Assembly (NCBI GenBank): GCA_022846635.1
Contig: AP025685.1
Span: 4,229,304-4,261,303, forward strand
DNA: 32,000 nucleotides
Direction: 5' to 3'
Source: Salmonella enterica subsp. enterica serovar Choleraesuis
GTDB taxonomy: Bacteria > Pseudomonadota > Gammaproteobacteria > Enterobacterales > Enterobacteriaceae
Below are positions 2,425 through 18,984 of the stretch, one piece after another; position 1 is the stretch's first letter; every line of letters starts with the position of its first letter. The position numbers and the translations under genes were made by a program. Below the pieces are notes generated by a model. The model made no database searches, was not told the DNA's origin, and saw nothing but the letters and a program-made list of their open reading frames with translations.

Positions 2425-3825
<1,401 letters not shown>

Positions 3826-3844
3826 TGCCTAATCGGAGGTTGCT

Positions 3845-4264
3845 ATGGCAATGACTTACCATCTGGATGTCGTCAGCGCAGAACTGCAAATGTTCAGCGG
3901 TCTGGTCGAGAAGATCCAGGTGACCGGTAGCGAAGGTGAGCTGGGGATTTATCCTGGTCACGCCCCGCTGCTGACAGCCATTAAGCCTGGTATGATCCGC
4001 ATAGTTAAGCAGCACGGAAAAGAAGAGTTCATCTATCTTTCTGGTGGCATTCTGGAAGTGCAGCCGGGCAACGTAACCGTACTGGCAGATACCGCTATTC
4101 GCGGCCAGGATCTCGACGAAGCGCGAGCCCTGGAGTCGAAACGCAAAGCCGAAGAGCACATCCGTAGCTCTCATGGCGATGTGGACTATGCTCAGGCTTC
4201 TGCTGAGCTGTCGAAGGCTATCGCTAAACTGCGTGTTATCGAGCTGACTAAAAAAGCGATGTAA
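3845..4264 (+). CDS. atpC: ATP synthase F1 epsilon subunit
   Basis: 139 aa starting [14 protein letters not shown] ggaggt SD lies upstream. It is the last gene of the atp operon. Confidence 0.97.
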
Positions 4265-4282
4265 TACCGGTCTGAAATATAA

Positions 4283-4310
4283 ATGCCAGCCTCAGGGCTG
4301 GCATTTTTTT
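4283..4310 (+). terminator. Rho-independent terminator of the atp operon
   Basis: atgccagcc (4283-4291) pairs with ggctggcat (4295-4303) and is followed by T7 (4304-4310). Confidence 0.85.
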
Positions 4311-4553
4311 GCCTCTATTACGCTTTATTCAGAGCTAAAAAAAAGCTTCCCCTCCCAGTTATCATTCTTACCATTTGTTTTATATGGTTTTTTTATTTGC
4401 TGAATGGATTCATAAAACATTCTGGCTTTTCTGTGCTCATATTTAGTCGGTAAAGCAGTCGGATTAAGTACACTACATTTTGCCCTAAAAAATATGTAGC
4501 ATTCCCGCTATCAAATCGCTTTACTCTTCATACTATTTCGAGGCAGGACGCAT

Positions 4554-5927
4554 ATGTCTGACAGCGCAATGAGCGTGGTAATCCTTGCAGCCGGCAAGGG
4601 AACACGCATGTATTCCGATCTTCCCAAAGTTCTTCACACTCTTGCGGGCAAGCCAATGGTTTCCCACGTGATAGATGCTGCCACTCAACTTGGCGCTCGT
4701 CAGGTTCACCTGGTATATGGCCACGGCGGTGACTTGCTCAAACAAGCACTGCATAACGATCGCCTTAATTGGGTACTGCAGGCAGAACAGTTAGGTACCG
4801 GGCATGCGATGCAGCAGGCGGCACCTTTCTTTGGGGATGACGAAGATATTTTGATGCTTTACGGCGATGTTCCGCTGATTGGCCTCGATACCCTTAAGCG
4901 CCTGTGTGCGGCAAAGCCTGCGGGTGGCATTGGCCTGCTGACGGTGAATCTGGAAGATCCGACAGGTTATGGCCGTATCACGCGCGATAACGGCAAAGTA
5001 TCCGGGATCGTTGAACACAAAGATGCCAGCGCCGAACAGCTGACCATTACTGAAATTAACACCGGCATTCTGGTTGCCAATGGCAAAGACCTGAAACGCT
5101 GGCTGGCTCAGCTCGATAACAATAATGCTCAGGGTGAATATTACATCACCGACATTATTAGCATGGCTTACGCCGAAGGGCGTGAAATTGCCGCCGTTCA
5201 TCCGGCTCGTCTAAGTGAAGTTGAAGGCGTTAATAACCGTCTGCAGCTTTCCCGGCTGGAGCGTGTATATCAGAGCGAACAGGCAGAATCTTTACTGCTG
5301 GCGGGCGTTATGTTGCGCGATCCTGCACGTTTTGATTTACGCGGTGTCCTGAGCCACGGGCGTGATGTTGAGATAGATACTAATGTGATCATTGAAGGTC
5401 AGGTCACTTTAGGAAATAGAGTCAAAATCGGTACAGGATGCGTAATTAAAAACAGCGTGATTGGCGATGATTGCGTTATCAGCCCTTATACCGTTATTGA
5501 AGATGCAGAGCTGGCGGTTGATTGTACCGTAGGGCCATTTGCACGCTTGCGTCCAGGCAGTGAGCTGGCTGAAGGCGCTCATGTCGGCAATTTCGTTGAG
5601 ATGAAAAAGGCCCGCCTGGGTAAAGGCTCTAAAGCTGGCCATCTTAGCTATCTTGGTGATGCGGAAATTGGCGCTAACGTGAATATCGGCGCGGGAACTA
5701 TTACCTGCAACTACGATGGCGCTAACAAGTTTAAAACTGTTATTGGCGATGACGTTTTTGTTGGTTCCGATACCCAGCTGGTGGCTCCGGTTACCGTTGG
5801 TCGCGGTGTCACTATTGCTGCCGGTACTACGGTGACCAAAGATGTCGCCGATAATGGACTGGTGCTGAGCCGCGTGCCGCAGGTACATAAACCAGAATGG
5901 CAACGTTCAGTTAAGCAGAAAAAATAA
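4554..5927 (+). CDS. glmU: Bifunctional GlcNAc-1-P uridyltransferase / GlcN-1-P acetyltransferase
   Basis: 457 aa. It has the N-terminal LAAGKGTRM nucleotidyltransferase motif and a C-terminal hexapeptide-repeat (left-handed beta-helix) region. It is syntenic with glmS. Confidence 0.97.
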
Positions 5928-6174
5928 TCAATCCAGATGGTTCCAGGTTCCGTCACCATTCTGGTAAGGCATATTTATTGCCGAAAACAGAAGTCATTGC
6001 CTGCACCGCGAGGTGCAGGTTGGGAAGATGGCCACTTATAAAGGCCACGCCCGTCTCTCGTAAGAGAACAAAATAATAGCCCCAACTCTCTACAAGGCTC
6101 GGGGTACCGGTAAATCCGGAACAACAGATCGACGGCAACGCAGGCGGAAACGCCTTATATGGGAATTTAAAAAT

Positions 6175-8004
6175 ATGTGTGGAATCGTAGGTGCAGTCGC
6201 CCAGCGCGACGTGGCTGAAATCCTGCTGGAAGGACTTCGTCGTCTTGAATATCGTGGTTATGACTCTGCCGGTCTGGCAGTCGTTGATGCCGGGGGACAC
6301 ATGACGCGTTTGCGTCGTCTGGGTAAAGTTCAGGTACTGGCTCAGGCCGCAGAGGAGCATCCTCTTCACGGTGGAACCGGGATTGCTCATACTCGTTGGG
6401 CAACTCATGGTGAGCCTTCTGAGACTAACGCTCATCCCCACGTATCAGGCCCGATTGTCGTTGTTCACAACGGGATTATCGAAAACTACGAGCCGCTGCG
6501 TGAGCAGATGAAGGCCCGTGGCTACGAATTCATTTCTGAAACCGATACCGAAGTTATCGCTCATCTGGTTCATTTTGAACTGAGCCAGGGAGGAACCCTG
6601 CGTGAAGCCGTGCTGCGCGTTATTCCTCAGCTGCGCGGTGCGTATGGCACGGTTATCGTTGATACCCGTAACCCGGACGTTCTGCTAGCCGCTCGCTCCG
6701 GCAGCCCGCTGGTTATCGGCCTGGGTGTGGGTGAAAACTTCATCGCTTCCGATCAGCTGGCTCTGTTGCCGGTAACCCGTAACTTTATCTTCCTGGAAGA
6801 AGGCGATATTGCCGAAGTTACCCGTCAGAAAGTGGATATTTTTGACCGTAACGGTACTGTGGTGAAGCGTGAAGCCCACGAATCTAATCTCAAATATGAT
6901 GCAGGCGAGAAAGGTATTTATCGCCACTACATGCAAAAAGAGATTTTCGAGCAGCCGGATGCCATTAAAAGCACCCTGTCTGGCCGTATCAGCCATGGCG
7001 CCGTGGATTTTAGCGAATTAGGGCCAGATGCCGATCGTCTGCTATCTGAAGTCGAACATATTCAGATCGTAGCCTGTGGTACTTCGTATAATTCCGGTTT
7101 CGTATCTCGTTACTGGTTTGAAGCGCTGGCAGGTGTGCCTTGCGATGTAGAGATTGCATCCGAGTTTCGTTATCGCAAATCAGCGGTACGCCGTAACAGT
7201 CTGATGATAACGCTGTCTCAGTCCGGTGAAACGGCAGATACTCTGGCCGCTCTGCGCCTGTCTAAAGAGCTGGGTTACCTCGGTTCTCTGGCTATCTGTA
7301 ACGTGGCAGGCTCCTCGCTGGTACGCGAATCTGACCTGGCGCTTATGACCAAAGCCGGGACTGAAATCGGCGTAGCGTCGACTAAAGCCTTCACTACTCA
7401 GCTTACCGTGTTGCTAATGCTGGTGGCGCGCGTTGCGAAGCTTAAAGGTGCTAAACCAGAGCTGGAGCACGAGATTGTTCATGCGCTACAGGCTCTGCCA
7501 AACCGCATTGAGCAGATGCTGGCTCAGGATAAACGCATTGCGGCACTGGCAGAGGATTTCACAGATAAGAACCATGCGCTGTTCCTGGGTCGTGGCGATC
7601 AGTACCCTATCGCCATGGAAGGGGCGCTGAAACTTAAAGAGATCTCCTACATTCATGCTGAAGCGTACGCCGCCGGCGAGCTGAAGCATGGCCCTCTGGC
7701 GCTTATTGATGAAGATATGCCGGTTATTGTGGTCGCGCCAAATAACGATCTGCTGGAAAAACTGAAGTCGAATATCGAAGAGGTTCGCGCTCGCGGTGGT
7801 CATCTTTATGTGTTTGCGGCAGAAGAGGCTGGCTTTACCAATACCGAAACCATGCACGTAATCCAGATGCCGCACGTAGAAGAGGTTATTGCGCCTATCT
7901 TCTACACCGTGCCGCTTCAGATGCTCTCTTATCATGTCGCGCTGATTAAAGGCACCGACGTCGATCAGCCGCGTAACCTGGCTAAATCAGTTACCGTGGA
8001 ATAA
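6175..8004 (+). CDS. glmS: Glutamine--fructose-6-phosphate aminotransferase
   Basis: 609 aa. It begins MCGIVG (Cys nucleophile after Met removal), has tandem SIS-type domains, and ends [13 protein letters not shown] as in E. coli GlmS. Confidence 0.98.
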
Positions 8005-8028
8005 TAGTGGTCTGACGTAATATCAACC

Positions 8029-8056
8029 AAAGGGGGCGCAAGCCCCCTTTGTTATT
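8029..8056. terminator. Bidirectional hairpin terminator between glmS and the convergent coiled-coil gene
   Basis: aaagggggc (8029-8037), gcaa loop, gcccccttt (8042-8050), then gttattt. The reverse strand also reads stem + tttggtt. Confidence 0.8.
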
Positions 8057-8068
8057 TAATAAACCCGA

Positions 8069-8512
8069 TCACTTAATTTGGCTGCTCAGGCTGTCCAGCT
8101 TGCTGTTAGCAGAATTCAGGCTGCTGCTTAGGGATTTGTTCTCGCTACTTAGCGAATCAACCTGGCGGCTTAACTCCTGGTTTTGGCGCTCCAGAGCATC
8201 CAGACGTTTATTCACATCAGACAGGCTCGAGCTGCCTTTGTTTTCCAGCTGGCTCTGCATCGAGGTCATATCGCTGCGAACCTTAGTTATCTCCTGGCTA
8301 AGGGAGTTAATATCATCGCGATTTTTTCCAATATCCTCTCCACTATAGCTGGAGGCACTAATAACATAATTCTCAGAGCCCTGGTTGGAAATTGAGGCAA
8401 GGTAAGGCCCGCTCAAGGCTACCATTCCTGAGTAAGAAACTTTTGGTTCTGCATGTGCAGATAGACTCACCAAACCGGCGCTCACAATCAGTACTGTCAT
8501 AAATTTATTCAT
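8069..8512 (-). CDS. Secreted Ser-rich coiled-coil protein with Lpp-like heptads, unknown function
   Basis: The ORF track starts it at GTG 8521. ATG 8512 (MNKFMTVLIVSAGLVSLSAHA/EP) has a ggtgag SD about 5 nt upstream and gives a canonical SPase-I signal peptide. The C-terminal approx 85 aa are heptad-like (SRQVDSLSSENKSLSSSLNSANSKLDSLSSQIK). Confidence 0.75.
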   Translation of the reverse strand: MNKFMTVLIVSAGLVSLSAHAEPKVSYSGMVALSGPYLASISNQGSENYVISASSYSGEDIGKNRDDINSLSQEITKVRSDMTSMQSQLENKGSSSLSDVNKRLDALERQNQELSRQVDSLSSENKSLSSSLNSANSKLDSLSSQIK

Positions 8513-8607
8513 TTTACTCACCGTTATTTCACAGAGGACAAAGTTAACCTACTGAAAAACAATGGAGAAAATGTGAGCGAAAAGTGGAGGATAATGCATC
8601 ATTCAGG

Positions 8608-8647
8608 CTGTCACAAAAATGTCATATTTCATACATCCAGGTGTCAC
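8608..8647 (+). promoter_or_regulatory. Tandem Pho boxes (PhoB binding sites) of the pstS promoter
   Basis: ctgtcacaaaaatgtcat (8608-8625) fits CTGTCAT-N4-CTGTCAT. The second box, catacatccaggtgtcac (8630-8647), aligns base-for-base in spacing with the E. coli pstS promoter as I recall it. A candidate -10, tattgt, lies at 8658-8663. Confidence 0.8.
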
Positions 8648-8713
8648 TAAACTGACCTATTGTTAATCCTGTAGGCAAAACAACCGATTAAGTTTACCTC
8701 CGCAGGAGACATT

Positions 8714-9754
8714 ATGAACGTTATGCGTACCACCGTCGCCACAGTTGTTACCGCGACGCTCGCTATGAGTGCCTTCTCCGTCAGCGCTGCCGCCAGCCTG
8801 ACTGGTGCGGGAGCAACCTTTCCGGCTCCGGTGTATGCCAAATGGGCAGACTCCTACCAGAAAGCCACCGGCAATAAAGTTAACTACCAGGGCATTGGTT
8901 CTTCTGGCGGCGTGAAGCAGATAACGGCAAACACCGTTGATTTTGGTGCATCGGATGCTCCTCTTAATGATGAAAAACTTTCTCAGGAAGGTTTATTCCA
9001 GTTCCCAACCGTTATTGGCGGCGTAGTGCTGGCGGTAAACGTTCAGGGCCTGAAATCTGGGGAACTGGTACTGGATGGCAAAACGCTGGGTGATATCTAC
9101 CTTGGCAAAATTAAGAAGTGGGATGATCCTGCGATTGCCAAACTCAACCCAGGCGTGAAGCTGCCGCAGCAAAATATTGCGGTCGTGCGCCGCGCCGATG
9201 GTTCCGGTACTTCTTATGTCTTCACCAGCTATCTGGCGAAAGTTAATCCGGAATGGAAATCCAGCGTCGGTACCGGCTCCACGGTTAAATGGCCAACCGG
9301 CCTTGGCGGTAAAGGCAACGATGGCGTAGCCGCTTTTGTTCAGCGCCTGCCGGGTGCCATTGGCTATGTAGAATATGCCTACGCCAAGCAAAACAACCTT
9401 ACCTATACCAAACTGGTTTCTGCCGATGGCAAGCCGGTAGCACCATCTGAAGAGAGCTTCTCAAACTCTGCCAAAGGTGCTGACTGGAGCAAAAGCTTTG
9501 CTCAGGATCTGACAAACCAGAAAGGTGATGATGTGTGGCCAATTTCGTCTACCACTTTCATCCTGGTACACCAGAAATATGCTAAAGCGGAGCAGGGCAG
9601 CGAAGTGCTGAAATTCTTCGACTGGGCTTATAAGAATGGCTCTGCTGAAGCTACGGCGCTGGATTACGCTCCGCTGCCGGATAGCGTTGTTGAGCAGGTG
9701 CGCGCGGCCTGGAAGACCAGCGTAAAAGACGCTAACGGAAAAGCGTTGTACTAA
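8714..9754 (+). CDS. pstS: Periplasmic phosphate-binding protein
   Basis: 346 aa with a signal peptide, then [19 protein letters not shown], near-identical to E. coli PstS. The SD is caggaga. Confidence 0.98.
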
Positions 9755-9763
9755 TTAGCCTTA

Positions 9764-9787
9764 GCTCTGCGCCTTACGGCGCAGAGC
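9764..9787 (+). promoter_or_regulatory. pstS-pstC intercistronic stem-loop (mRNA stabiliser/attenuator candidate)
   Basis: gctctgcgcc (9764-9773), ttac loop, ggcgcagagc (9778-9787): a perfect 10-bp GC-rich stem right after the pstS stop. Confidence 0.5.
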
Positions 9788-9804
9788 GCTATCAGTAAGA
9801 GTGA

Positions 9805-11657
<1,853 letters not shown>

Positions 11658-11675: not shown

Positions 11676-12479
<804 letters not shown>

Positions 12480-12544
12480 TACGCCTTTGCTGATTTGGCT
12501 CGCGACGCCTGGGCGTCGTCATAGCAGGCCATGTGGAGATAAAG

Positions 12545-13270
12545 ATGGACAACCTTAACCTCAATAAACATATTTCCGGCCAGTTTAATGCCGAGCTGGA
12601 GCACATCCGCACTCAGGTGATGACCATGGGCGGGCTGGTGGAGCAGCAGCTCTCTGACGCGATTACCGCCATGCATAATCAGGACGGCGAACTGGCCCAG
12701 CGGGTTATCGATGGCGATAAAAAAGTGAATATGATGGAGGTGGAGATTGACGAGGCGTGCGTTCGTATCATCGCCAAACGTCAGCCTACCGCCAGCGATT
12801 TGCGCCTGGTGATGGCGATTATCAAAACCATCAGTGAGCTGGAACGCATCGGCGATGTCGCGGATAAAATCTGCCGCACGGCGCTGGAGAAGTTCTCTCA
12901 GCAGCATCAGCCGCTGCTCGTTAGCCTGGAATCACTGGGCCGTCATACTGTGCAGATGCTGCATGATGTTCTGGATGCCTTCGCGCGTATGGATCTTGAT
13001 GAGGCAGTGCGGATTTATCGAGAAGATAAGAAGGTCGATCAGGAATATGAAGGGATCGTCCGTCAGTTAATGACATACATGATGGAAGATACTCGCACCA
13101 TTCCAAGCGTACTGACAGCGCTGTTCTGCGCCCGCTCTATCGAGCGTATCGGTGACCGCTGCCAAAACATCTGCGAATTTATCTTCTACTTTGTTAAAGG
13201 ACAGGACTTCCGCCACGTAGGCGGCGATGAGCTGGATAAGCTGCTGGCCGGTCGTGACCCTAAAGATTAA
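12545..13270 (+). CDS. phoU: Phosphate signalling regulator PhoU
   Basis: [25 protein letters not shown] matches the E. coli PhoU N-terminus. GGAG lies 6 nt upstream of ATG 12545. The track start GTG 12533 would add 4 aa. Confidence 0.95.
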
Positions 13271-13278
13271 GTTTCGCT

Positions 13279-14418
13279 TTAATGTTCAAAGGATTGCGCG
13301 CTAAGCTGGCGCGCATCTTCCGCTCTGGCCGATAGCGCCAGCGCATCGAAGCTTTCCGCACTGTAACAGCCATCAGGTTTAGGCAGGCGCGCCATATGAT
13401 TTCCCACACACAGCTTCAGCCGGGCCAGATCGGTGAACTTTCTGCCATAAAGCTCGTGAGGTAATGTCAGGCGCAGCGGCGACAGTGTTTCTCCCGGTAC
13501 CGGGGTCGGTAATCGGTCATCATTTGTTTGATAGTTACGTTTCAATACCAGAAATTTATCCGGCACCGCCCGATGGCTATCCCACCAGCGGCCATCCAGC
13601 ATATCGAGCTGAAAGCGGGTCAATGCTGCGGGTACCCCACCAAGCCTGACAAGCGCTTCGGGAATGATGCGGGTCATGGCGATGTTGTAATCGGTCGTTG
13701 AGGCTCCATGGCCGTCGAGCAGCAGGCTCACTGCAAGCCGAACGCCCAGCAGATTTGAGTACAGATCCTCAGGGGAAAAGGCGGATATATCTTCAGGGAA
13801 CTCAGGCACCGAATGGTAGCCATACCACTGGGCTATTTCATGCCATGCCGCCAGCTGAAATGCCAGCCACCCGGCGAGCCAGGCATCCAGGGTATAAGCT
13901 TCGGCTGCGTTTTCCGGCGCGGTAAAATCATTGGTAACTACTTCACGGTGCGTCAGTTCATCACTGAGCGTCAGAGCAAATCTCTGGCCGCGGTGAGCAC
14001 GCAGATGACTGAACAGATAAAAGGTCATATCCGCACTATCGCGCACGTGGGCAATATCGATAAATCCACCGCGCCGGGTATAGATAATGCCGTCGTTTTC
14101 ACGACTCAAGCCACTCAGATTAAGCAATGCACCCAGCAGACGGTCGTTATATTCGTGCTCCCCAAGATTCCCCTCCTCAACAATGTTATTCAGCCGATAC
14201 AGAGGTACAGGAATCCCCAGAAGTTTGGCTCGCAGGTTATAACCAAACGCACAGCAGGGACGTAATCCATCCGGGGATGGAAGGGGAGCTGTGACTGGCC
14301 AGGCTCTGGTAGCCTGCTTCTCTGACTGAGTGCTTAGGTCTACCGGAACCGGCAGCGCCCATGCAGTGTTAAGCATGAAGGCTAATATTGCTGCTGCAAA
14401 CTTCCCGACTGTCGTCAA
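13279..14418 (-). CDS. Exported 379-aa protein of unknown function (third gene of the envelope operon)
   Basis: Signal peptide MTTVGKFAAAILAFMLNTAWA/LP. The TTG start has GGAG 7 nt upstream and overlaps the upstream stop (TTGA). There are no TM segments after the signal peptide, four Cys residues, and motifs GGFIDIAHVRD and WHEIAQWYGYH. Confidence 0.8.
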   Translation of the reverse strand: MTTVGKFAAAILAFMLNTAWALPVPVDLSTQSEKQATRAWPVTAPLPSPDGLRPCCAFGYNLRAKLLGIPVPLYRLNNIVEEGNLGEHEYNDRLLGALLNLSGLSRENDGIIYTRRGGFIDIAHVRDSADMTFYLFSHLRAHRGQRFALTLSDELTHREVVTNDFTAPENAAEAYTLDAWLAGWLAFQLAAWHEIAQWYGYHSVPEFPEDISAFSPEDLYSNLLGVRLAVSLLLDGHGASTTDYNIAMTRIIPEALVRLGGVPAALTRFQLDMLDGRWWDSHRAVPDKFLVLKRNYQTNDDRLPTPVPGETLSPLRLTLPHELYGRKFTDLARLKLCVGNHMARLPKPDGCYSAESFDALALSARAEDARQLSAQSFEH

Positions 14419-15548
14419 AATGCTTCTCCAACCTGAAAGTAGAATCCACTGCTACGCCGGCCTAAGCCGTAATCTAGCCGCACATTTATGCCGGGCTTAA
14501 AAGCAAAGCGATATCCGGCACCTGCCGTGGGCAGCCAGCGCCCTTCTCCCAGAGTATGAAAATGCCGACTCATCGTGCCAGCTCCCAGCCAGCCGACAAT
14601 ACCGTGACGCCAGCTCAGTTTTTGGCGGTATTCAATTTGCGTGCTGAAGGTATTTCTATCGCGATACCGCCCTTCATAATAGCCGCGCATCCGGTTACTG
14701 CTGCCGAGGCTGGGCATTTCATTCCAGGGAACCCGCCCCTGAGTGAATACGCCGTTAGCCTCCCACGCCAGAACACGCTTATCATCCAAAGAGCGGTAGT
14801 AGCCGAGCTGTGAATCGATGCGATCAAAACGGGTATCGCCGCCGGTATCCGGGGAGTAGTGGGTATAACCCAGCCCGGCGTTGACCCCGCGTCGGGGATT
14901 GGGAACAAAATCCCGCGTGTCATAGCTTAGGATCACTCCCGGCCCGCTACTGAAAACCGATGGCCCGTCTTTAGTATTTGCCAGCGTTTGTTTATGCCGG
15001 TTTTGTATACGCTCAGCGCTCATTGAAGATAAAGACCAGTTCAAACCCAGATAGGTATCCGGGGCGACTTTGCGCATTAGCTGCGGATTAACAGAAAACT
15101 CGCGGGCGGTATATTGCTGGCGATTATGCCCATGACGACCGGCATCAAACCCTTCTCCCCAGAAATAGGTGGGCGTGTTGGCCGCCCGTCCTTTGAGGTA
15201 AAAGCGCCAGTTATCATTATCATAGAAACCGTAGTTCTCTACGCTGGCTCCAAAAGCCCCGGTCGCGCTGCCGTAACCGCTGATAGTGATGGTAGAGTTC
15301 TGGCTGACCTTGTCGCTCTCGTCGGGGCGATAAACGCCGGCGATAGCGGCACCAATACCAGGCCCTAGTTCAGGCGTGTAAAAGGGCCCCGGCATCACTC
15401 CCCAGTCGATGCCTTTACGGGCATCGAACTGGCCATCGGCACCAAGGTTATCTAACCAGTTATCTATTTGATTTCGGTCAGGCAGCGGGCTTGCGCTGGC
15501 AGAAATCGCCGCCAGCGTAAGCATCAGTGCGGTTATGAAGCGGAACAT
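14415..15548 (-). CDS. Omp85 / bacterial-surface-antigen family outer-membrane beta-barrel without POTRA domains
   Basis: Signal peptide MFRFITALMLTLAAISASA/SP. It has the loop-6-type RMRGY motif, and the C-terminus RLDYGLGRRSSGFYFQVGEAF is typical of the family. At 377 aa total there is no room for POTRA repeats. Confidence 0.85.
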   Translation of the reverse strand: MFRFITALMLTLAAISASASPLPDRNQIDNWLDNLGADGQFDARKGIDWGVMPGPFYTPELGPGIGAAIAGVYRPDESDKVSQNSTITISGYGSATGAFGASVENYGFYDNDNWRFYLKGRAANTPTYFWGEGFDAGRHGHNRQQYTAREFSVNPQLMRKVAPDTYLGLNWSLSSMSAERIQNRHKQTLANTKDGPSVFSSGPGVILSYDTRDFVPNPRRGVNAGLGYTHYSPDTGGDTRFDRIDSQLGYYRSLDDKRVLAWEANGVFTQGRVPWNEMPSLGSSNRMRGYYEGRYRDRNTFSTQIEYRQKLSWRHGIVGWLGAGTMSRHFHTLGEGRWLPTAGAGYRFAFKPGINVRLDYGLGRRSSGFYFQVGEAF

Positions 15549-16609
15549 CAGAAGCGGAATTCGCCGGATACCAGGAGACTGTTACGCTTAGCGAATCCAA
15601 CTTCGGTCATAACGGCAAAGTTGCGGGTAATTTCATACTGCGCACCTACCAGCATATTCCACGGTGACTCCAGATGCTGTTTCACATCGAAGCGCCCCTG
15701 GCCTTTTTTATTGGCCAGAGTCATCAGGCTTTGCAGCTCGGCAGGCATATTAAGATCGCGCAGGCTTCCTTTAAATTCCTGCTGGACGTTTTGATACATC
15801 GTGCCGACCCAGACATTCAGTTTACCTGCAGGCAGATAGATTGAGCCTACGCTCGGAGTCTGGAAGCTGTAGCCAACCCGTGGCGAGAGAGTAAAGGCAT
15901 CAATGCTGCCATCAAGAATATCAAAGCGGGTTTGGGTGTAGTTAAAATCGATTAAGCCAAACCAGTTTTTATAACCACCGGTTAGAACCGTACCGGCTCC
16001 ATAGGTATTGCCTTTAAAATTTAATTTAAAGTCCAAATCGCGAAGTTTACCGGACTCATTCATGCCGTGAATAACTCCGGCAATAATTTTGTCCATTCCG
16101 GAGTAATTAGCAGGGTCGGAATCTACCGATACTTTTGACAGCGAATGTCCTCGGGTTTTGCCAACGATCCCATAAACATTCCAGAATGGCAGTATCCACG
16201 CGTCTAACTTGATGGTTCGGGTTTTGCTTTTTTGCCGGGTTTTAGCGACATCAATGTTAAATAAATCTGAAGATATAGGAAATAAACCCAGTGCATTTAG
16301 ATTTTTAAATTTAATGCTTTCGACATCAATGTTCTGCCTGATATTCATGTAATTTATATTAATACCGAAGGGTTCGGGAAGATCGTAACCCTGGGCCCGG
16401 GCTTCTTTACCCCATATCGGAAGCACATCGGTATGCCAGAAGGCGGGTGGCCGCTGCTGCTGTGTTGGGCTGGACTCTGAGGGCTGTGCAGTATAATGAA
16501 GGTCAGAAGGGATGTTTTCGCCAGACTTATCAGTAATGATATCGGCGGCAAAAGAGGTAAAACTTATCATCCCTGATGACAAGCAGGCAGCTAATAATAT
16601 TTTTTTCAT
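15548..16609 (-). CDS. Outer-membrane beta-barrel protein, family not recognised (first gene of the envelope operon)
   Basis: Signal peptide MKKILLAACLSSGMISFTSFA/AD. The sequence has amphipathic alternating-strand patterns and a terminal beta-signal LLVSGEFRF. Its TGA overlaps the next ATG (TGATG). Confidence 0.8.
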   Translation of the reverse strand: MKKILLAACLSSGMISFTSFAADIITDKSGENIPSDLHYTAQPSESSPTQQQRPPAFWHTDVLPIWGKEARAQGYDLPEPFGININYMNIRQNIDVESIKFKNLNALGLFPISSDLFNIDVAKTRQKSKTRTIKLDAWILPFWNVYGIVGKTRGHSLSKVSVDSDPANYSGMDKIIAGVIHGMNESGKLRDLDFKLNFKGNTYGAGTVLTGGYKNWFGLIDFNYTQTRFDILDGSIDAFTLSPRVGYSFQTPSVGSIYLPAGKLNVWVGTMYQNVQQEFKGSLRDLNMPAELQSLMTLANKKGQGRFDVKQHLESPWNMLVGAQYEITRNFAVMTEVGFAKRNSLLVSGEFRF

Positions 16610-16673
16610 AAATATAAGTATGCTTTATATAACGGTGGGTTTGGTTTTCGTGCCATATTCCTTAAGGCGCGCG

Positions 16674-16682
16674 ATTATAACA
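16674..16682 (-). promoter_or_regulatory. Candidate extended -10 promoter element for the envelope operon
   Basis: The - strand reads tgtTATAAT (+ strand attataaca at 16674-16682), about 65 nt upstream of ATG 16609. There is no good -35, which fits an extended -10 type. Confidence 0.3.
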
Positions 16683-16773
16683 GGGGATGTGACGATTTAT
16701 ATGTGCTGTGGAATGCGTATTAACTCAAAATTATAATATTTTCTGTTTTTAGCCGGATTTGTTTACTTTAATA

Positions 16774-16808
16774 AATATACCGCTGCATATAATCAGCAGC
16801 GGTATATT
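16774..16808 (-). terminator. Hairpin terminator downstream of yieH
   Basis: aatataccgctgc (16774-16786) is the exact reverse complement of gcagcggtatatt (16796-16808), with a 9-nt loop. A/T-rich tracts lie on both sides. Confidence 0.6.
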
Positions 16809-16815
16809 TTTATGG

Positions 16816-17475
16816 TCAATCTTTGGTCAGGTTCCAGCCGCGCTGACGCCACAGCGCAGGTAGCTCGCTAAGTGACGTAAAGGATATCACGTTAGGATGC
16901 GTGATTGGCGGGTTATGGTCATCGGCGCAAAAATAGTAAACCTGCATGCCGGCGGCAATACCCGCCTCGGCTCCGGCCCTGGAATCATCAACCAGAATCG
17001 CGCGCGTAACGTCTACGCCCATGTTGGCCGCCGCATGGAACATAATGTCCGGTTCGGGTTTCCAGCACTGAATATCATAGCCGCTAAACAGTTTACCTGT
17101 GAAATGAGCCAGCATGCCGGTATTTCCCAGTGAGTGTTCCATTTTGCTTACCGGGCCGTTGGAAACGATACACATCGGTACACTTACGCGCTCAACCAGT
17201 TCCTGTGCGCCGGGAATGGCAGTGAGTTCAGACTCGAATAGCCGGGCGACCTCGGCGCGATAGTTGGGCTCCAGGTCTTCGCGCTGAAGGTGGGTACCAT
17301 GCTCCTGGTTGATAATATCAATGATTTCATAAAGCTTTACGCCTTTGAAACGCTTGAATACTTCATCGGTATCAAGCTCGATACCCGCTTCGGCAAACAT
17401 GTAAACGTAGGCGCGGGAGCACAGCATTTCGCTATCAACCAGCGTTCCGTCACAGTCAAAAAAAATCGCATCCAT
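16816..17475 (-). CDS. yieH: HAD-superfamily phosphatase (6-phosphogluconate phosphatase YieH-like)
   Basis: AIFFDCDGTLVDSE (HAD motif I DxDGT), then KRFKGVKLYEIIDI and VSNGP, collinear with E. coli YieH from memory. I place the start at ATG 17475; the track start at 17508 would add 11 aa. Confidence 0.9.
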   Translation of the reverse strand: MDAIFFDCDGTLVDSEMLCSRAYVYMFAEAGIELDTDEVFKRFKGVKLYEIIDIINQEHGTHLQREDLEPNYRAEVARLFESELTAIPGAQELVERVSVPMCIVSNGPVSKMEHSLGNTGMLAHFTGKLFSGYDIQCWKPEPDIMFHAAANMGVDVTRAILVDDSRAGAEAGIAAGMQVYYFCADDHNPPITHPNVISFTSLSELPALWRQRGWNLTKD

Positions 17476-17646
17476 CTCAATACCTTTTCCATCAATCACA
17501 CAGAACACCTACTTTAAGCGGTTTGGCGTACGCAATCGATGCCGTGATCAAAAATGGTGGCAAAAAAATGCATTTTTAGCAGTCTATGCGGCACTTTTTG
17601 TTATAGGATAGCCCGGCATTTTTTTCTCCTGTTCTGGAAACCAATA

Positions 17647-18984
17647 ATGAGCCAACCATACTCACCCCAGGCTGCTCGTCTGGGTTTGCTGGAGCGCGTT
17701 TTTAAGTTACGTGAGCACGGCACGACGGCCCGAACCGAAGTTATCGCCGGGTTTACCACTTTTCTTACCATGGTTTATATCGTGTTCGTGAATCCGCAAA
17801 TTCTCGGCGCGGCCGGTATGGATACTCATGCGGTATTTGTGACAACCTGTCTTATTGCCGCATTTGGCAGCATCCTGATGGGGCTGATTGCCAATCTACC
17901 GGTAGCTCTGGCTCCGGCGATGGGGTTGAATGCATTCTTCGCATTTGTCGTGGTTGGTGCCATGGGATTATCCTGGCAAGTCGGGATGGGAGCTATCTTC
18001 TGGGGCGCTGTTGGGCTGTTTCTGCTGACCATTTTCCGTATTCGTTACTGGATGATAGCTAATATCCCGATGGGGCTGCGGGTGGGTATCACCAGCGGTA
18101 TTGGTCTATTTATCGGCATGATGGGGCTTAAAAATGCTGGCATCATTGTGGCTAATAAAGACACCCTGGTGGCTATTGGCGATCTGACCTCCCACAGCGT
18201 TCTGCTGGGTGCGTTGGGTTTCTTTATCATCGCTATTTTGGCATCACGTAATATCCACGCCGCAGTACTTATTTCGATGGTTGTGACTACGGTTCTGGGT
18301 CTGGCCTTGGGGGATGTGCATTACACCGGTATTGTCTCTGCGCCTCCAAGCATCATGAGCGTGGTTGGGCATGTCGATCTTGCTGGCTCTCTGAACCTTG
18401 GCCTGGCCGGGATTATCTTCTCCTTTATGCTGGTTAACCTTTTTGACTCCTCCGGTACCCTGATTGGGGTCACTGATAAAGCCGGGCTGACGGATGCCAA
18501 AGGTAAATTCCCGAGAATGCAGCAGGCTCTGTTTGTAGACAGCGTATCGTCGGTGACGGGATCTCTGGCGGGGACTTCCTCGGTAACGGCTTATATCGAA
18601 TCCACTTCCGGGGTTTCGGTGGGCGGCCGTACCGGCCTGACGGCCATCGTGGTCGGCTTGCTATTTATGCTGGTGATATTCCTGTCGCCTCTGGCGGGTA
18701 TGGTGCCAGGTTATGCCGCAGCCGGTGCGCTGATTTATGTCGGGGTTTTGATGACCTCAAGTCTGGCGCGAGTTAAGTGGGACGATCTGACTGAAGCGGT
18801 GCCCGCGTTTATTACTGCGGTAATGATGCCATTCAGTTTCTCTATTACCGAAGGTATTGCCCTGGGCTTTATCTCTTACTGCGTGATGAAGATTGGTACC
18901 GGCCGTCTGCGTGAGCTAAGCCCGTGTGTGGTTATTGTCGCTTTGCTGTTTGTCCTGAAAATCGTCTTTGTTGACGGACATTAA
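17647..18984 (+). CDS. adeP: Adenine permease (NCS2/AzgA-like)
   Basis: LERVFKLREHGTTARTEVIAGFTTFLTMVYIVFVNPQILG is near-identical to E. coli AdeP (YieG/PurP). I place the start at ATG 17647 (MSQPYS...). The 31-aa track extension looks non-coding. Confidence 0.93.
   Translation: MSQPYSPQAARLGLLERVFKLREHGTTARTEVIAGFTTFLTMVYIVFVNPQILGAAGMDTHAVFVTTCLIAAFGSILMGLIANLPVALAPAMGLNAFFAFVVVGAMGLSWQVGMGAIFWGAVGLFLLTIFRIRYWMIANIPMGLRVGITSGIGLFIGMMGLKNAGIIVANKDTLVAIGDLTSHSVLLGALGFFIIAILASRNIHAAVLISMVVTTVLGLALGDVHYTGIVSAPPSIMSVVGHVDLAGSLNLGLAGIIFSFMLVNLFDSSGTLIGVTDKAGLTDAKGKFPRMQQALFVDSVSSVTGSLAGTSSVTAYIESTSGVSVGGRTGLTAIVVGLLFMLVIFLSPLAGMVPGYAAAGALIYVGVLMTSSLARVKWDDLTEAVPAFITAVMMPFSFSITEGIALGFISYCVMKIGTGRLRELSPCVVIVALLFVLKIVFVDGH

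Follow-up and report, generated by a model that had tools for sequence, protein, structure and literature searches.

Two-partner and type Vd secretion both use Omp85 barrels as their transporters. In two-partner secretion (TpsB/FhaC with TpsA), an operon encodes an Omp85-family barrel and its Sec-exported partner, and in type Vd proteins (PlpD/FplA) a patatin passenger is joined to a POTRA domain and an Omp85-type barrel. Within the Omp85/TpsB superfamily, a 'noNterm' subfamily (Heinz & Lithgow 2014, PMC4104836) possesses a 16-stranded barrel with a loop-6 RGY, no periplasmic domain and no assigned function; its Leptospira members LIC12252/12254/12258 (PMC11358297) are encoded next to adhesin-like lipoproteins. 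DUF4056 has been assigned to the Lipocone superfamily, which comprises lipid head-group phosphoester enzymes, within its CapCone branch (Burroughs et al., eLife 2025, PMC12419801). The census in that paper recorded, in 131 contexts, 151 instances of an OMP barrel upstream of DUF4056, making 'OMP-beta-barrel' the dominant upstream neighbour, in addition to rare OMP-barrel fusions at either DUF4056 end and tandem DUF4056 copies, but its text does not discuss the DUF4056 context.

Here we analysed a 32,000-nucleotide stretch of Salmonella enterica serovar Choleraesuis (contig AP025685.1), termed the window, in which three consecutive genes encode an outer-membrane β-barrel (ORF1, or A1), a POTRA-less Omp85 (ORF2) and a DUF4056 protein (ORF3). 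No experimental work on this trio was found in the literature. Its features are as follows, in the direction of transcription.

16779..16800, minus strand: terminator-like hairpin following the yieH-like HAD gene that lies upstream, separating that gene from the trio
16674..16724, minus strand: probable trio promoter, GTTAATACGCAT (16724-16713), 33 nt, then an extended -10 TGtTATAAT (16682-16674)
15548..16609, minus strand: ORF1, 353 aa
16358..16423, minus strand: ORF1 pre-barrel motif LPIWGKEARAQGYDLPEPFGIN, residues 63-84, with invariant P64, G67, A70, G74, Y75, P78 and G82
15546..15550, minus strand: ORF1/ORF2 junction TGATG, ORF1 stop TGA and ORF2 start ATG overlapping by 1 nt
14415..15548, minus strand: ORF2, 377 aa
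14679..14693, minus strand: ORF2 loop-6 motif RMRGY, residues 286-290
14415..14429, minus strand: ORF2/ORF3 junction, GGAG, 7-nt spacer and TTGA with a 4-nt overlap
13279..14418, minus strand: ORF3, 379 aa, TTG start
13714..14121, minus strand: ORF3 Lipocone catalytic core, about residues 100-235

As a sequence-only reading of the window had described, the three minus-strand frames leave no intergenic space (overlaps of 1 and 4 nt), and each of the proteins carries a signal-peptide-like N-terminus (MKKILLAACLSSGMISFTSFAA, MFRFITALMLTLAAISASA and MTTVGKFAAAILAFMLNTAWA); ORF1 and ORF2 end in ...GEFRF and ...QVGEAF, respectively. The TTG of ORF3 overlaps the TGA of ORF2 at 14418-14415, and GGAG (14429-14426) lies 7 nt 5' of it. 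The public record starts ORF3 at codon 15 (365 aa) rather than at this TTG, which is nevertheless supported because homologues measure ~365-390 aa and possess signal peptides. Across 47 distinct A1-Omp85 junction sequences the offsets were -1 (36), -4 (6) and +2 (5), and across 50 distinct Omp85-DUF4056 junctions -4 (22), -1 (23) and 0 (5), so that all 50 of the latter show an overlap or a 0-nt gap. With hundreds of homologues per protein and the same order and overlapping junctions in dozens of loci, the trio is not a chance arrangement. The upstream element GTTAATACGCAT is also conserved: CGCA(C/T), often preceded by GTTAAT, recurs 29-33 nt 5' of TATAxT at trio loci of many genera and unrelated chromosomal sites.

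ORF2 is a real Omp85 of the BamA/TamA type that belongs, by its lack of POTRA, with the 'noNterm' proteins, which bears out the earlier assignment. It scored 37.1 bits against PF01103 (cut-off 24) and partially matched NF047779, and Pfam searches found no POTRA or other extra domain even at E<=1. In the AF2 model (pLDDT 86.8, pTM 0.82) the signal peptide (residues 1-20) is followed by a short helix (25-34) that is conserved, and then by a barrel of 16 strands (47-373); strand 1 begins at residue 47, ~26 residues after the signal peptide. RMRGY belongs to a long loop (272-298) that joins strands 11 and 12, its R288, G289 and Y290 being invariant in 30 homologues, and the C-terminal strand is modelled at low confidence, reminiscent of a lateral seam. 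Structural similarity search using Foldseek placed the insertase-type barrels TamA, BamA and Sam50 closest (E~1e-11; TamA barrel 4n74, TMq 0.56), with no TpsB among the 50 matches listed, and the sole match of the sequence profile was F. nucleatum BamA. Compared to TamA and BamA, ORF2 lacks POTRA, no gene for a TamB/AsmA-like partner or a Bam lipoprotein lies nearby, and its module is accessory and plasmid-borne. Compared to the 'noNterm' and Leptospira proteins, the enterobacterial ones have no DUF5982 match, have a barrel as their fixed partner, together with a Lipocone enzyme, instead of adhesin-like lipoproteins, and exist as two paralogues, A and B, of 23% identity.

ORF1 is likewise an outer-membrane β-barrel, as had been read from its sequence, and represents an unannotated family. 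Its signal peptide (~1-22) leads into a linker (~23-60) that is disordered and variable, followed by the conserved pre-barrel motif and a tall barrel (81-353) of ~10 strands in the AF2 model (pLDDT 79.4). Its only Pfam match is a weak one to OMP_b-brl (E 0.02), and all Foldseek matches are outer-membrane barrels (Pla, FapF, FadL and autotransporter β-domains), at low TM. A profile search collected 1022 clusters at 50% identity, none of which has a Pfam family, and the motif LPxxGxxAxxxGYxLPxPFG extends to distant members from other phyla and classes. Three distant lipoprotein members bear N-terminal extensions that weakly match SYLF/Ysc84, below the Pfam threshold; SYLF/Ysc84 is independently established as a lipid-binding domain.

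ORF3 matches PF13265 (DUF4056) over residues 44-308 with an E value of 6e-117, and Pfam detected no other domain, including the TPS domain. The core contains three motifs: GGFIDIAHVRDSAD (residues 117-130), in which G118 is at -6 from H124; WHEIAQWYG (192-200); and SAFSPEDLYSN (212-222), an SxxSxxD with D218, F214-S215 and S221-N222. Residues Y113, T114, G117, G118, D121, H124, R126, D130, H193, E194, S212, D218 and G225 are invariant in diverse DUF4056 members. The motifs agree with the clade signatures in PMC12419801, and every CapCone/Lipocone signature residue is intact. We therefore predict from these signatures that ORF3, a full-length CapCone-DUF4056 member, is a soluble, Sec-exported hydrolase or transferase acting on lipid head-group phosphoesters. 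The earlier view of an exported 379-aa protein thus stands as to export, but the protein is not anonymous. Nor does it fall in a well-characterised enzyme family: DUF4056/CapCone-Lipocone is without experimental characterisation, and the characterised Lipocone relative is the lipid II phosphatase TelC.

Both the gene order of the trio and its overlapping junctions are retained across Enterobacterales as well as in Photobacterium; the order recurs in 14 of 16 species-representative genome loci, and the trio is seen in Providencia, Salmonella, Xenorhabdus, Edwardsiella, Serratia and Proteus. It recurs in many gut- and insect-associated bacteria, with host-associated genera enriched. Its chromosomal sites vary (phoU-yieH, yidA-torS, zntA-tusA and beside CRISPR), and it is also plasmid-borne, on a conjugative plasmid of Serratia and, flanked by IS66, on an IncF plasmid of E. 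coli. The trio is thus an accessory, mobile unit, in keeping with the earlier proposal, and in E. coli, too, variable accessory content occupies the phoU-yieH interval. No conserved fourth gene accompanies it across these differing sites, and the trio is therefore self-contained; the co-occurrence and adjacency expected for it hold in many genera. It is, however, not indivisible. ORF1 and Omp85 occur without DUF4056 in K. pneumoniae, whose Omp85 falls in a cluster with 6,811 member sequences, as well as in Cupriavidus. ORF1 and DUF4056 occur without Omp85 in K. variicola and on at least 8 E. coli/E. fergusonii plasmids. Among 33 dereplicated DUF4056-anchored loci, 31 have an ORF1-type gene directly upstream (one a fragment only), 29 have an upstream Omp85, and 2 of the 33 clusters are solo DUF4056 genes. 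Since ORF1 pairs with either partner in the absence of the other, it, and not the Omp85, is the constant hub of the module.

Further genes also join the module. Some loci have a second, divergent POTRA-less Omp85 upstream, and a number of Klebsiella-like loci show a decaying Omp85-B; together with the solo genes, this decay indicates that the barrel dependence of DUF4056 is not absolute. In Photobacterium, a lipoprotein patatin phospholipase overlaps the end of the trio as a fourth gene, and in Vibrio alfacsensis an ORF1-like barrel lies between Omp85 genes and a lipoprotein patatin. The barrel pair is thus repeatedly linked to two unrelated kinds of lipid-acting enzyme, DUF4056 and patatin. 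Newly added here to the census are the identity of its barrels as a POTRA-less Omp85 and a distinct barrel family, the variants and the patatin link.

On the E. coli/E. fergusonii IncF plasmids, ORF1 and DUF4056 directly follow deacetylase-GT4-DUF535(VirK) genes, an order shared with the operon shf-rfbU-virK-msbB2 of Shigella/EAEC plasmids, though this shf/rfbU/virK-like context is one of adjacency only. In the PhoP-regulated LPS-modification operon of Shigella, the lipid A acyltransferase gene msbB2 follows virK (PMC5775216, PMC7355660); msbB2 is absent from the IncF plasmids, and the Salmonella trio has none of the shf-rfbU-virK neighbours.

Our tentative proposal is that the module serves as a platform in the outer membrane, bringing lipid-acting enzymes to that membrane and editing the cell's own envelope lipids. 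The intact signature residues of ORF3, the patatin links, the LPS-type plasmid context and the weak SYLF matches speak for lipid editing. Against it stand the 'Biological conflict' tag that the census gives CapCone-DUF4056, and PlpD, the best-known case of a lipid enzyme paired with Omp85, which serves secretion rather than editing in cis; moreover, an enzyme of the periplasmic leaflet would not obviously need two barrels.

The main alternative, somewhat less probable, is a split type V-like export, in which Omp85 and/or ORF1 would pass Sec-exported ORF3 across the outer membrane, the Photobacterium/Vibrio lipoprotein patatin taking the same route; once displayed on the surface or released, the enzyme would be an effector of conflict or virulence, attacking lipids of competing bacteria or the host. 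The passenger that PlpD exports is a patatin lipase, and like type Vd systems the trio ties a lipid-acting enzyme genetically to an Omp85-type barrel. However, its enzyme and barrel are separate polypeptides without POTRA, the main enzyme is a Lipocone rather than a patatin, the linked patatins are lipoproteins, and a second, ~10-stranded barrel is always present. The operon also resembles two-partner secretion, but the defining features of that parallel, drawn in the earlier reading, are missing: POTRA and the TPS domain are absent, the ORF2 barrel is nearest BamA/TamA/Sam50 and not TpsB, and the order is barrel-barrel-enzyme. Export would fit the conflict tag, the fusions and tandem copies in the census, the toxin tips of sister CapCone families, a DUF4056 ORF proposed as a candidate effector in a Salmonella T6SS island, and the accessory, mobile distribution favouring host-associated genera. 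The single conserved cysteine pair of ORF3, the adjacent C55-C56, is compatible with unfolded translocation, and the ORF1 matches include the secretion barrels FapF and autotransporter β-domains; yet the omptin-like ORF1 model is too narrow for a polypeptide pore. In addition, ORF3 is not hypervariable, immunity genes are lacking even though the producer's own periplasm is where the enzyme first arrives, and on E. coli plasmids ORF1 and DUF4056 sit within an envelope-modification gene set without a dedicated Omp85.

It is improbable that ORF1 is a channel or surface protein with a private Omp85 insertase, and DUF4056 a barrel-independent periplasmic enzyme merely co-transcribed with them. The DUF4056-less pairs and solo DUF4056 genes would agree with this, as would mitochondrial Sam50, which still assembles barrels when its POTRA domain is missing (cited in PMC4104836), but the near-constant upstream ORF1-type barrel, its retention where Omp85 is missing, the 50 of 50 tight junctions and the upstream barrels and direct fusions of the census argue otherwise. 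Least probable is a toxin-immunity or polymorphic-toxin cassette with DUF4056 as the toxin and one barrel protecting the producer or delivering the toxin. The conflict tag and the relatives CapCone-1 and CapCone-2, which are polymorphic-toxin tips with BamE-like immunity proteins (PMC12419801), point that way; by contrast, the loci compared have no small variable immunity-type gene, no RHS, PAAR, T6SS or CDI delivery domains occur in or beside the trio, PADLOC gave no matches, and divergence is similar and moderate for all three proteins, with DUF4056 as conserved (mean column identity 61%) as the barrels (66% and 55%).

In the envelope-lipid platform that we tentatively favour, ORF1 and ORF2 would form a two-barrel unit as the core of a self-contained, horizontally mobile outer-membrane module. 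The overlapping stop and start codons would keep ORF2 in fixed proportion to ORF1, of which it is most likely the dedicated insertase or a standing membrane partner; the assembly or gating of ORF1 suggested in the earlier reading is likewise a candidate role. After Sec export, ORF3 would be recruited by this unit, in a putative complex with one or other barrel, to the outer membrane, where it may hydrolyse or transfer, from the periplasmic side or at the surface, phosphoester-linked head groups of envelope lipids, the candidate substrates being lipid A/LPS, phospholipid or a polyprenyl-phosphate-linked glycan.

The Omp85-centred envelope module of the window consists of three minus-strand open reading frames that follow one another without intergenic space:

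15548-16609, minus strand: ORF1, the upstream barrel gene, 353 aa
14415-15548, minus strand: ORF2, the Omp85 gene, 377 aa
13279-14418, minus strand: ORF3, the DUF4056 gene, 379 aa, TTG start

The overlap of ORF1 and ORF2 reads TGATG at 15550-15546, with one base common to stop and start, whereas ORF2 and ORF3 overlap by the 4-nt TTGA at 14418-14415. The TTG codon of ORF3 is preceded by GGAG (14429-14426) with a spacer of 7 nt. Each of the three N-termini resembles a Sec signal peptide, the C-termini of ORF1 and ORF2 are GEFRF and QVGEAF, respectively, and ORF2 carries RMRGY at residues 286-290. In all these details the sequence-only reading, which had proposed a translationally coupled envelope trio, agrees with our ORF calls, and the overlapping junctions indicate that the trio would be expressed in a coupled manner.

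Public annotations give shorter forms of two of the proteins. In the public record, ORF3 starts at codon 15 (365 aa) and would lose its signal peptide; in the annotation of an identical genome, ORF1 is a 340-aa “lipoprotein” whose start cuts into the signal peptide. The family alignments support the longer forms, namely ORF1 from the ATG at 16609 and ORF3 from the TTG at 14418, the latter because the lengths and signal peptides of the homologues fit this start. The lipoprotein label of ORF1 was rejected, as its LAAC (residues 6-9) lies too near the N-terminus and lacks conservation.

Upstream of ORF1, a conserved element (T)GTTAAT-N-CGCA(C/T) was found at 16713-16724 on the minus strand, and a -10-like TATAxT follows it at a fixed distance of 29-33 nt (16674-16682 in the window). 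It also precedes ORF1 homologues in different genera, where the trio lies at chromosomal sites unrelated to one another (loci L001, L004, L005, L020, L023, L028, L032, L033, L036, L037, L052, L064 and others), and Providencia and Xenorhabdus have related but differing versions. Comparison by eye with PmrA, PhoP, CRP, LacI-type, ArcA, RcsB and MarA boxes gave no convincing fit. Rfam search of positions 12000-18000 yielded no RNA family, and PADLOC no defence family.

HMM search assigned ORF2 to PF01103 with 37.1 bits (Pfam cut-off 24) and an E-value of 3.4e-9 over residues 142-377, which bears out the Omp85 barrel first recognized from its motifs, and the AlphaFold2 fold agrees. Built with 30 homologues, the model (pLDDT 86.8, pTM 0.82) has 16 strands within residues 47-373. 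Residues 21-46 alone precede the first strand, including one short conserved helix (25-34), so that a POTRA domain cannot fit, as had been argued earlier; neither PF07244 (POTRA) nor any other domain was detected in Pfam/NCBIfam searches, even at E<=1. The RMRGY motif is located in a long loop (272-298), and its residues R288, G289 and Y290 are invariant in the 30 homologues, in line with the loop-6 signature (V/I)RG(F/Y). Structural similarity search of the PDB using Foldseek revealed TamA, BamA, Sam50 and Toc75, with E-values of 1e-11 to 1e-9 and a probability of 1.0, and TpsB is absent among the 50 matches listed. The PF01103 match, the missing POTRA, the model and the Foldseek matches therefore define ORF2 as a POTRA-less Omp85 of the BamA/TamA type. 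It has all the tested features of the superfamily and of its noNterm class, which was catalogued in 2014 without an assigned function (Heinz & Lithgow 2014, PMC4104836).

ORF1 represents an unnamed barrel family, with a weak OMP_b-brl match (E 0.02) as its sole Pfam/NCBIfam hit. In its model (pLDDT 79.4), the signal peptide is followed by a disordered linker of variable length, a conserved motif LPIWGxEARxxGYDLPEPFG and about ten long strands of ~20 residues each, in addition to two loops with helices; topology counting places both termini in the periplasm. The homologues share an invariant C-terminal E-x-R-F. Every significant Foldseek match of ORF1 is an outer-membrane barrel, with low TM scores; the best superposition is the 10-stranded omptin Pla, and further matches include FapF, FadL and autotransporter β-domains. 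PDB sequence searches gave no relative. The signal peptide, the even strand number of the model, the aromatic β-signal and the structural likeness together predict an outer-membrane β-barrel. A truncated Omp85 was also considered and rejected, as hhalign gave a probability of 0.3% against ORF2, indicating no detectable kinship.

Profile search of 1.84 billion representative proteins retrieved 1,022 clusters of the ORF1 family at E<=1e-3, 716 of them at E<=1e-10. Distant members have kept the motif in front of the barrel and an aromatic residue at the C-terminus, and ten long members that were scanned all stayed below the family cut-offs of Pfam. Four distant members (P0476, P0483, P0498 and P0501) are lipoproteins with N-terminal extensions of ~200 aa, three of which weakly match Ysc84 (SYLF) at E 0.002-0.06, below the curated cut-off. 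The SYLF domain binds lipids.

ORF3 matches PF13265 over the full length of the model (positions 2-266 of 266) with 390 bits and an E-value of 6.4e-117. DUF4056 has been classified as “CapCone-DUF4056” in the Lipocone superfamily (Wnt/TelC/PTDSS), the CapCone clade of which is predicted to be soluble, and the characterised Lipocone members, namely TelC, a lipid II phosphatase, and the phosphatidylserine synthases, act on phosphoester bonds in the head groups of lipids (Burroughs et al., eLife 2025, PMC12419801). All signatures listed for DUF4056 in this census (PMC12419801) are present in ORF3: a Gly six residues before the H2 His (G118...H124), an xD before the same His (I120-D121), S/GxxSxx before the H4 Asp (S212-A-F-S215-P-E-D218), Phe-Ser at -4/-3 of that Asp (F214-S215), and a small residue plus Asn at +3/+4 (S221-N222). 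The active-site residues are thus intact. Alignment with very diverse DUF4056 domains, taken from the data file of PMC12419801, showed that Y113, T114, G117, G118, D121, H124, R126, D130, H193, E194, S212, D218 and G225 are invariant. By analogy with TelC and PTDSS1/2, ORF3 is predicted to act on lipid head-group phosphoester bonds; PDB sequence search found no relative with a solved structure. In its independent count, the census lists 151 occurrences of an “OMP-beta-barrel” upstream of DUF4056 within 131 contexts, a ratio that points to more than a single barrel per locus, and it records rare fusions too; the barrels are not identified there, and the text leaves the context of DUF4056 undiscussed (PMC12419801).

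The three genes are inherited together. Genome scanning with ORF2 gave 16 species-level loci, in 14 of which ORF1, ORF2 and ORF3 occur in this order; the other two are a contig of 3 kb and a locus under decay in an Arsenophonus symbiont. The adjacency and co-occurrence expected from the sequence-only reading were thereby confirmed, with named carriers in Providencia, Salmonella, Xenorhabdus, Edwardsiella, Serratia and Proteus. The offset between ORF1 and the Omp85 gene is -1, -4 or +2 nt (47 distinct junctions), and that between the Omp85 and DUF4056 genes is -4, -1 or 0 nt (50 distinct junctions). Since each of the three proteins has hundreds of homologues and the same order and overlapping junctions recur widely, the arrangement is far from chance. 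Some lineages appear to be losing the module by pseudogenisation: among the 14, Providencia stuartii NCTC11800 has its ORF1 homologue split into two ORFs (L011, 5050-5947), and in Ca. Arsenophonus nilaparvatae the Omp85 homologue is split and the partner genes are absent (L016, 5908-7073).

The flanks of the trio vary: phoU-yieH in the window, yidA-torS in Salmonella, zntA-tusA in Serratia and Edwardsiella, and a CRISPR-Cas neighbour in Xenorhabdus. No conserved fourth gene was found across the loci compared, and the trio is carried by plasmids as well, namely a conjugative one of Serratia and an IncF one of E. coli, where IS66 flanks it. From the conserved order and junctions, the variable flanks, the lack of a fourth gene and the plasmid copies, we therefore regard the trio as a self-contained mobile unit. 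The trio, which fills the phoU-yieH interval, had been considered accessory; E. coli K-12 lacks it, and other accessory genes occupy this slot in E. coli chromosomes. In E. coli WL297 (L105, 10003-14795) the slot holds a pseudogene of a type III effector and genes for a pentapeptide-repeat protein and a hypothetical protein of 800 aa, which confirms that integration occurs preferentially here.

The trio proteins share only 73-76% identity with their closest relatives, and among about 15 billion proteins no other falls into the 90%-identity cluster of the window's GlmS (6175-8004). These two observations make the species label of the source record look doubtful; the 100%-identical public proteins BDH47782.1 and BDH47791.1 are labelled Salmonella enterica serovar Choleraesuis TUM12370.

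The module exists in several versions. A diverse DUF4056 alignment was used as query for metagenomes, and the retained set of the 80 nearest loci, which have identities of 47% or more and do not extend to other phyla, was dereplicated into 33 clusters with sufficient upstream sequence. Fourteen clusters have ORF1-Omp85-DUF4056, ten have Omp85B-ORF1-Omp85-DUF4056 and five have Omp85B-ORF1-DUF4056, in addition to two with ORF1 (intact or fragmentary) and DUF4056 and two with DUF4056 alone. Omp85B is a second, divergent POTRA-less Omp85 of ~383 aa, which matches PF01103, is 23% identical to ORF2 and ends in VYFNVGSGL. Encoded upstream of an ORF1-type barrel in L044 (2676-3827), L058 (3725-4879) and about 30 other metagenomic loci, and apparently frameshifted in L039-L041, it gives rise to four-gene or alternative three-gene versions of the module.

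ORF1 and the Omp85 occur without DUF4056 in Cupriavidus, a betaproteobacterium, and in K. pneumoniae, whose Omp85 belongs to a cluster of 6,811 member sequences; ORF1 and DUF4056 occur without the Omp85 in K. variicola and on at least eight IncF plasmids of E. coli and E. fergusonii. This makes ORF1 the hub, whose partner can be the Omp85, DUF4056 or the two together. In Klebsiella-type genomes, the system seems to be divided between two loci: one has an ORF1 (ORF1a) and an Omp85 of the ORF2 type (L001, K. pneumoniae, yidA-dgoR), and the other has an optional Omp85B, a second ORF1 (ORF1b) and DUF4056. At the same site, the latter (L101, K. variicola, tenA-gfo; L048 versus L058) may be complete, lack Omp85B or consist of DUF4056 alone.

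The more distant contexts came from tblastn searches of plasmids and chromids. On the IncF plasmids of E. coli and E. fergusonii (L106 and L109, about 2459-9889), genes for an AraC-type regulator, a polysaccharide deacetylase, a GT4 glycosyltransferase and a DUF535/VirK protein are followed by an ORF1-type barrel, an 83-aa ORF, DUF4056, a 292-aa β-rich exported protein without family and an AraC-type regulator. The first three enzymes mirror shf-rfbU-virK of the PhoP-regulated Shigella LPS modification cluster shf-rfbU-virK-msbB2, and the barrel and DUF4056 take the place of the lipid A acyltransferase gene msbB2 (PMC5775216, PMC7355660). In Photobacterium (Vibrionaceae), the intact trio is followed by an overlapping gene for a lipoprotein patatin-like phospholipase, and a Vibrio alfacsensis plasmid carries a TamA-like gene, an ORF1-like barrel and a lipoprotein patatin in this order, with an Omp85 of POTRA-less size nearby:

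L107, 8220-9182: lipoprotein patatin of Photobacterium sp. DA100, lipobox LYGC, directly after the trio
L113, 6133-7314: lipoprotein patatin of the Vibrio alfacsensis plasmid, lipobox ITAC, directly after the ORF1-like barrel

Two unrelated families of lipid-acting enzymes hence recur behind the barrels.

Compared to known systems, the module shares parts with several and is a member of none, but its mode of action may resemble type Vd or two-partner secretion, or that of an outer-membrane enzyme platform. The sequence-only reading had suggested a stripped-down two-partner-like arrangement. Its POTRA-less Omp85 and co-inherited accessory trio hold, but the defining features of two-partner secretion are missing: ORF2 lacks the two POTRA domains of a TpsB transporter and no N-terminal TPS (haemagglutination activity) domain is present, ORF3 having only DUF4056 and ORF1 only the weak OMP_b-brl. 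Type Vd proteins such as PlpD combine patatin, POTRA and barrel in a single polypeptide, whereas ORF2 has neither patatin nor POTRA; the patatins of Photobacterium and Vibrio recall this type, though only as separate lipoprotein genes. BamA has five POTRA domains and TamA three, but ORF2 has none, and neither TamB nor Bam lipoproteins neighbour it in the loci examined. RHS, PAAR, CDI and T6SS/T7SS domains and a cognate immunity gene, which mark polymorphic toxin cassettes, were not found at the trio; ORF3 ends 8 nt from the convergent phoU. The parts of the module had been catalogued before, but the system as such had not been described, and a literature search (DUF4056, noNterm, POTRA-less Omp85) found no experimental study of it.

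We propose that ORF1 and ORF2 would form a two-barrel unit, in which the BamA/TamA-like ORF2 may serve as the private insertase or standing partner of ORF1. This unit would bring the Sec-exported Lipocone enzyme ORF3 to the outer membrane, where it could hydrolyse or transfer phosphoester-linked lipid head groups. We tentatively favour action on the envelope of the producer itself, because there is no immunity gene and DUF4056 is conserved as much as the barrels, because ORF1 looks too narrow for a protein pore and ORF2 is insertase-like rather than TpsB-like, and because the plasmid context in E. coli is envelope modification. The main rival, which we hold to be somewhat unlikely, is that the enzyme is exported as an effector by a split, type V-like route; in its favour are the precedent of PlpD (type Vd) with its patatin, the “Biological conflict” tag and the barrel fusions of the census (PMC12419801), the toxin role of sister CapCone families, and the mobility and host-associated distribution of the module. 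That the barrels and DUF4056 are functionally independent appears improbable. A toxin-immunity cassette is more improbable still, since no immunity gene or delivery domain is adjacent in the loci compared or in the Pfam search.

A further and rather unlikely idea is that the POTRA-less Omp85 is half of an outer-membrane lipid-editing machine rather than a protein transporter, its BamA-like seam and the ORF1 barrel giving DUF4056 or the lipoprotein patatin access to lipid head groups. If true, this would provide the first function for the noNterm Omp85 class and for a barrel family of ~1,000 clusters, and a new plasmid-spread route of surface remodelling in Enterobacterales. The POTRA-less Omp85 is now found in tractable and clinically important Klebsiella, Salmonella, Serratia, Proteus and Providencia and on E. 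coli plasmids, and its two fixed partners suggest what to measure, so that the question of its function becomes testable. Two unstudied families, the ORF1 barrels and the DUF4056 branch of the Lipocone superfamily, are brought forward as well. Should the module edit LPS or other surface lipids, or export an enzyme that attacks lipids, it would be relevant to resistance against antimicrobial peptides, to the interaction with the host and to fitness traits carried by plasmids.
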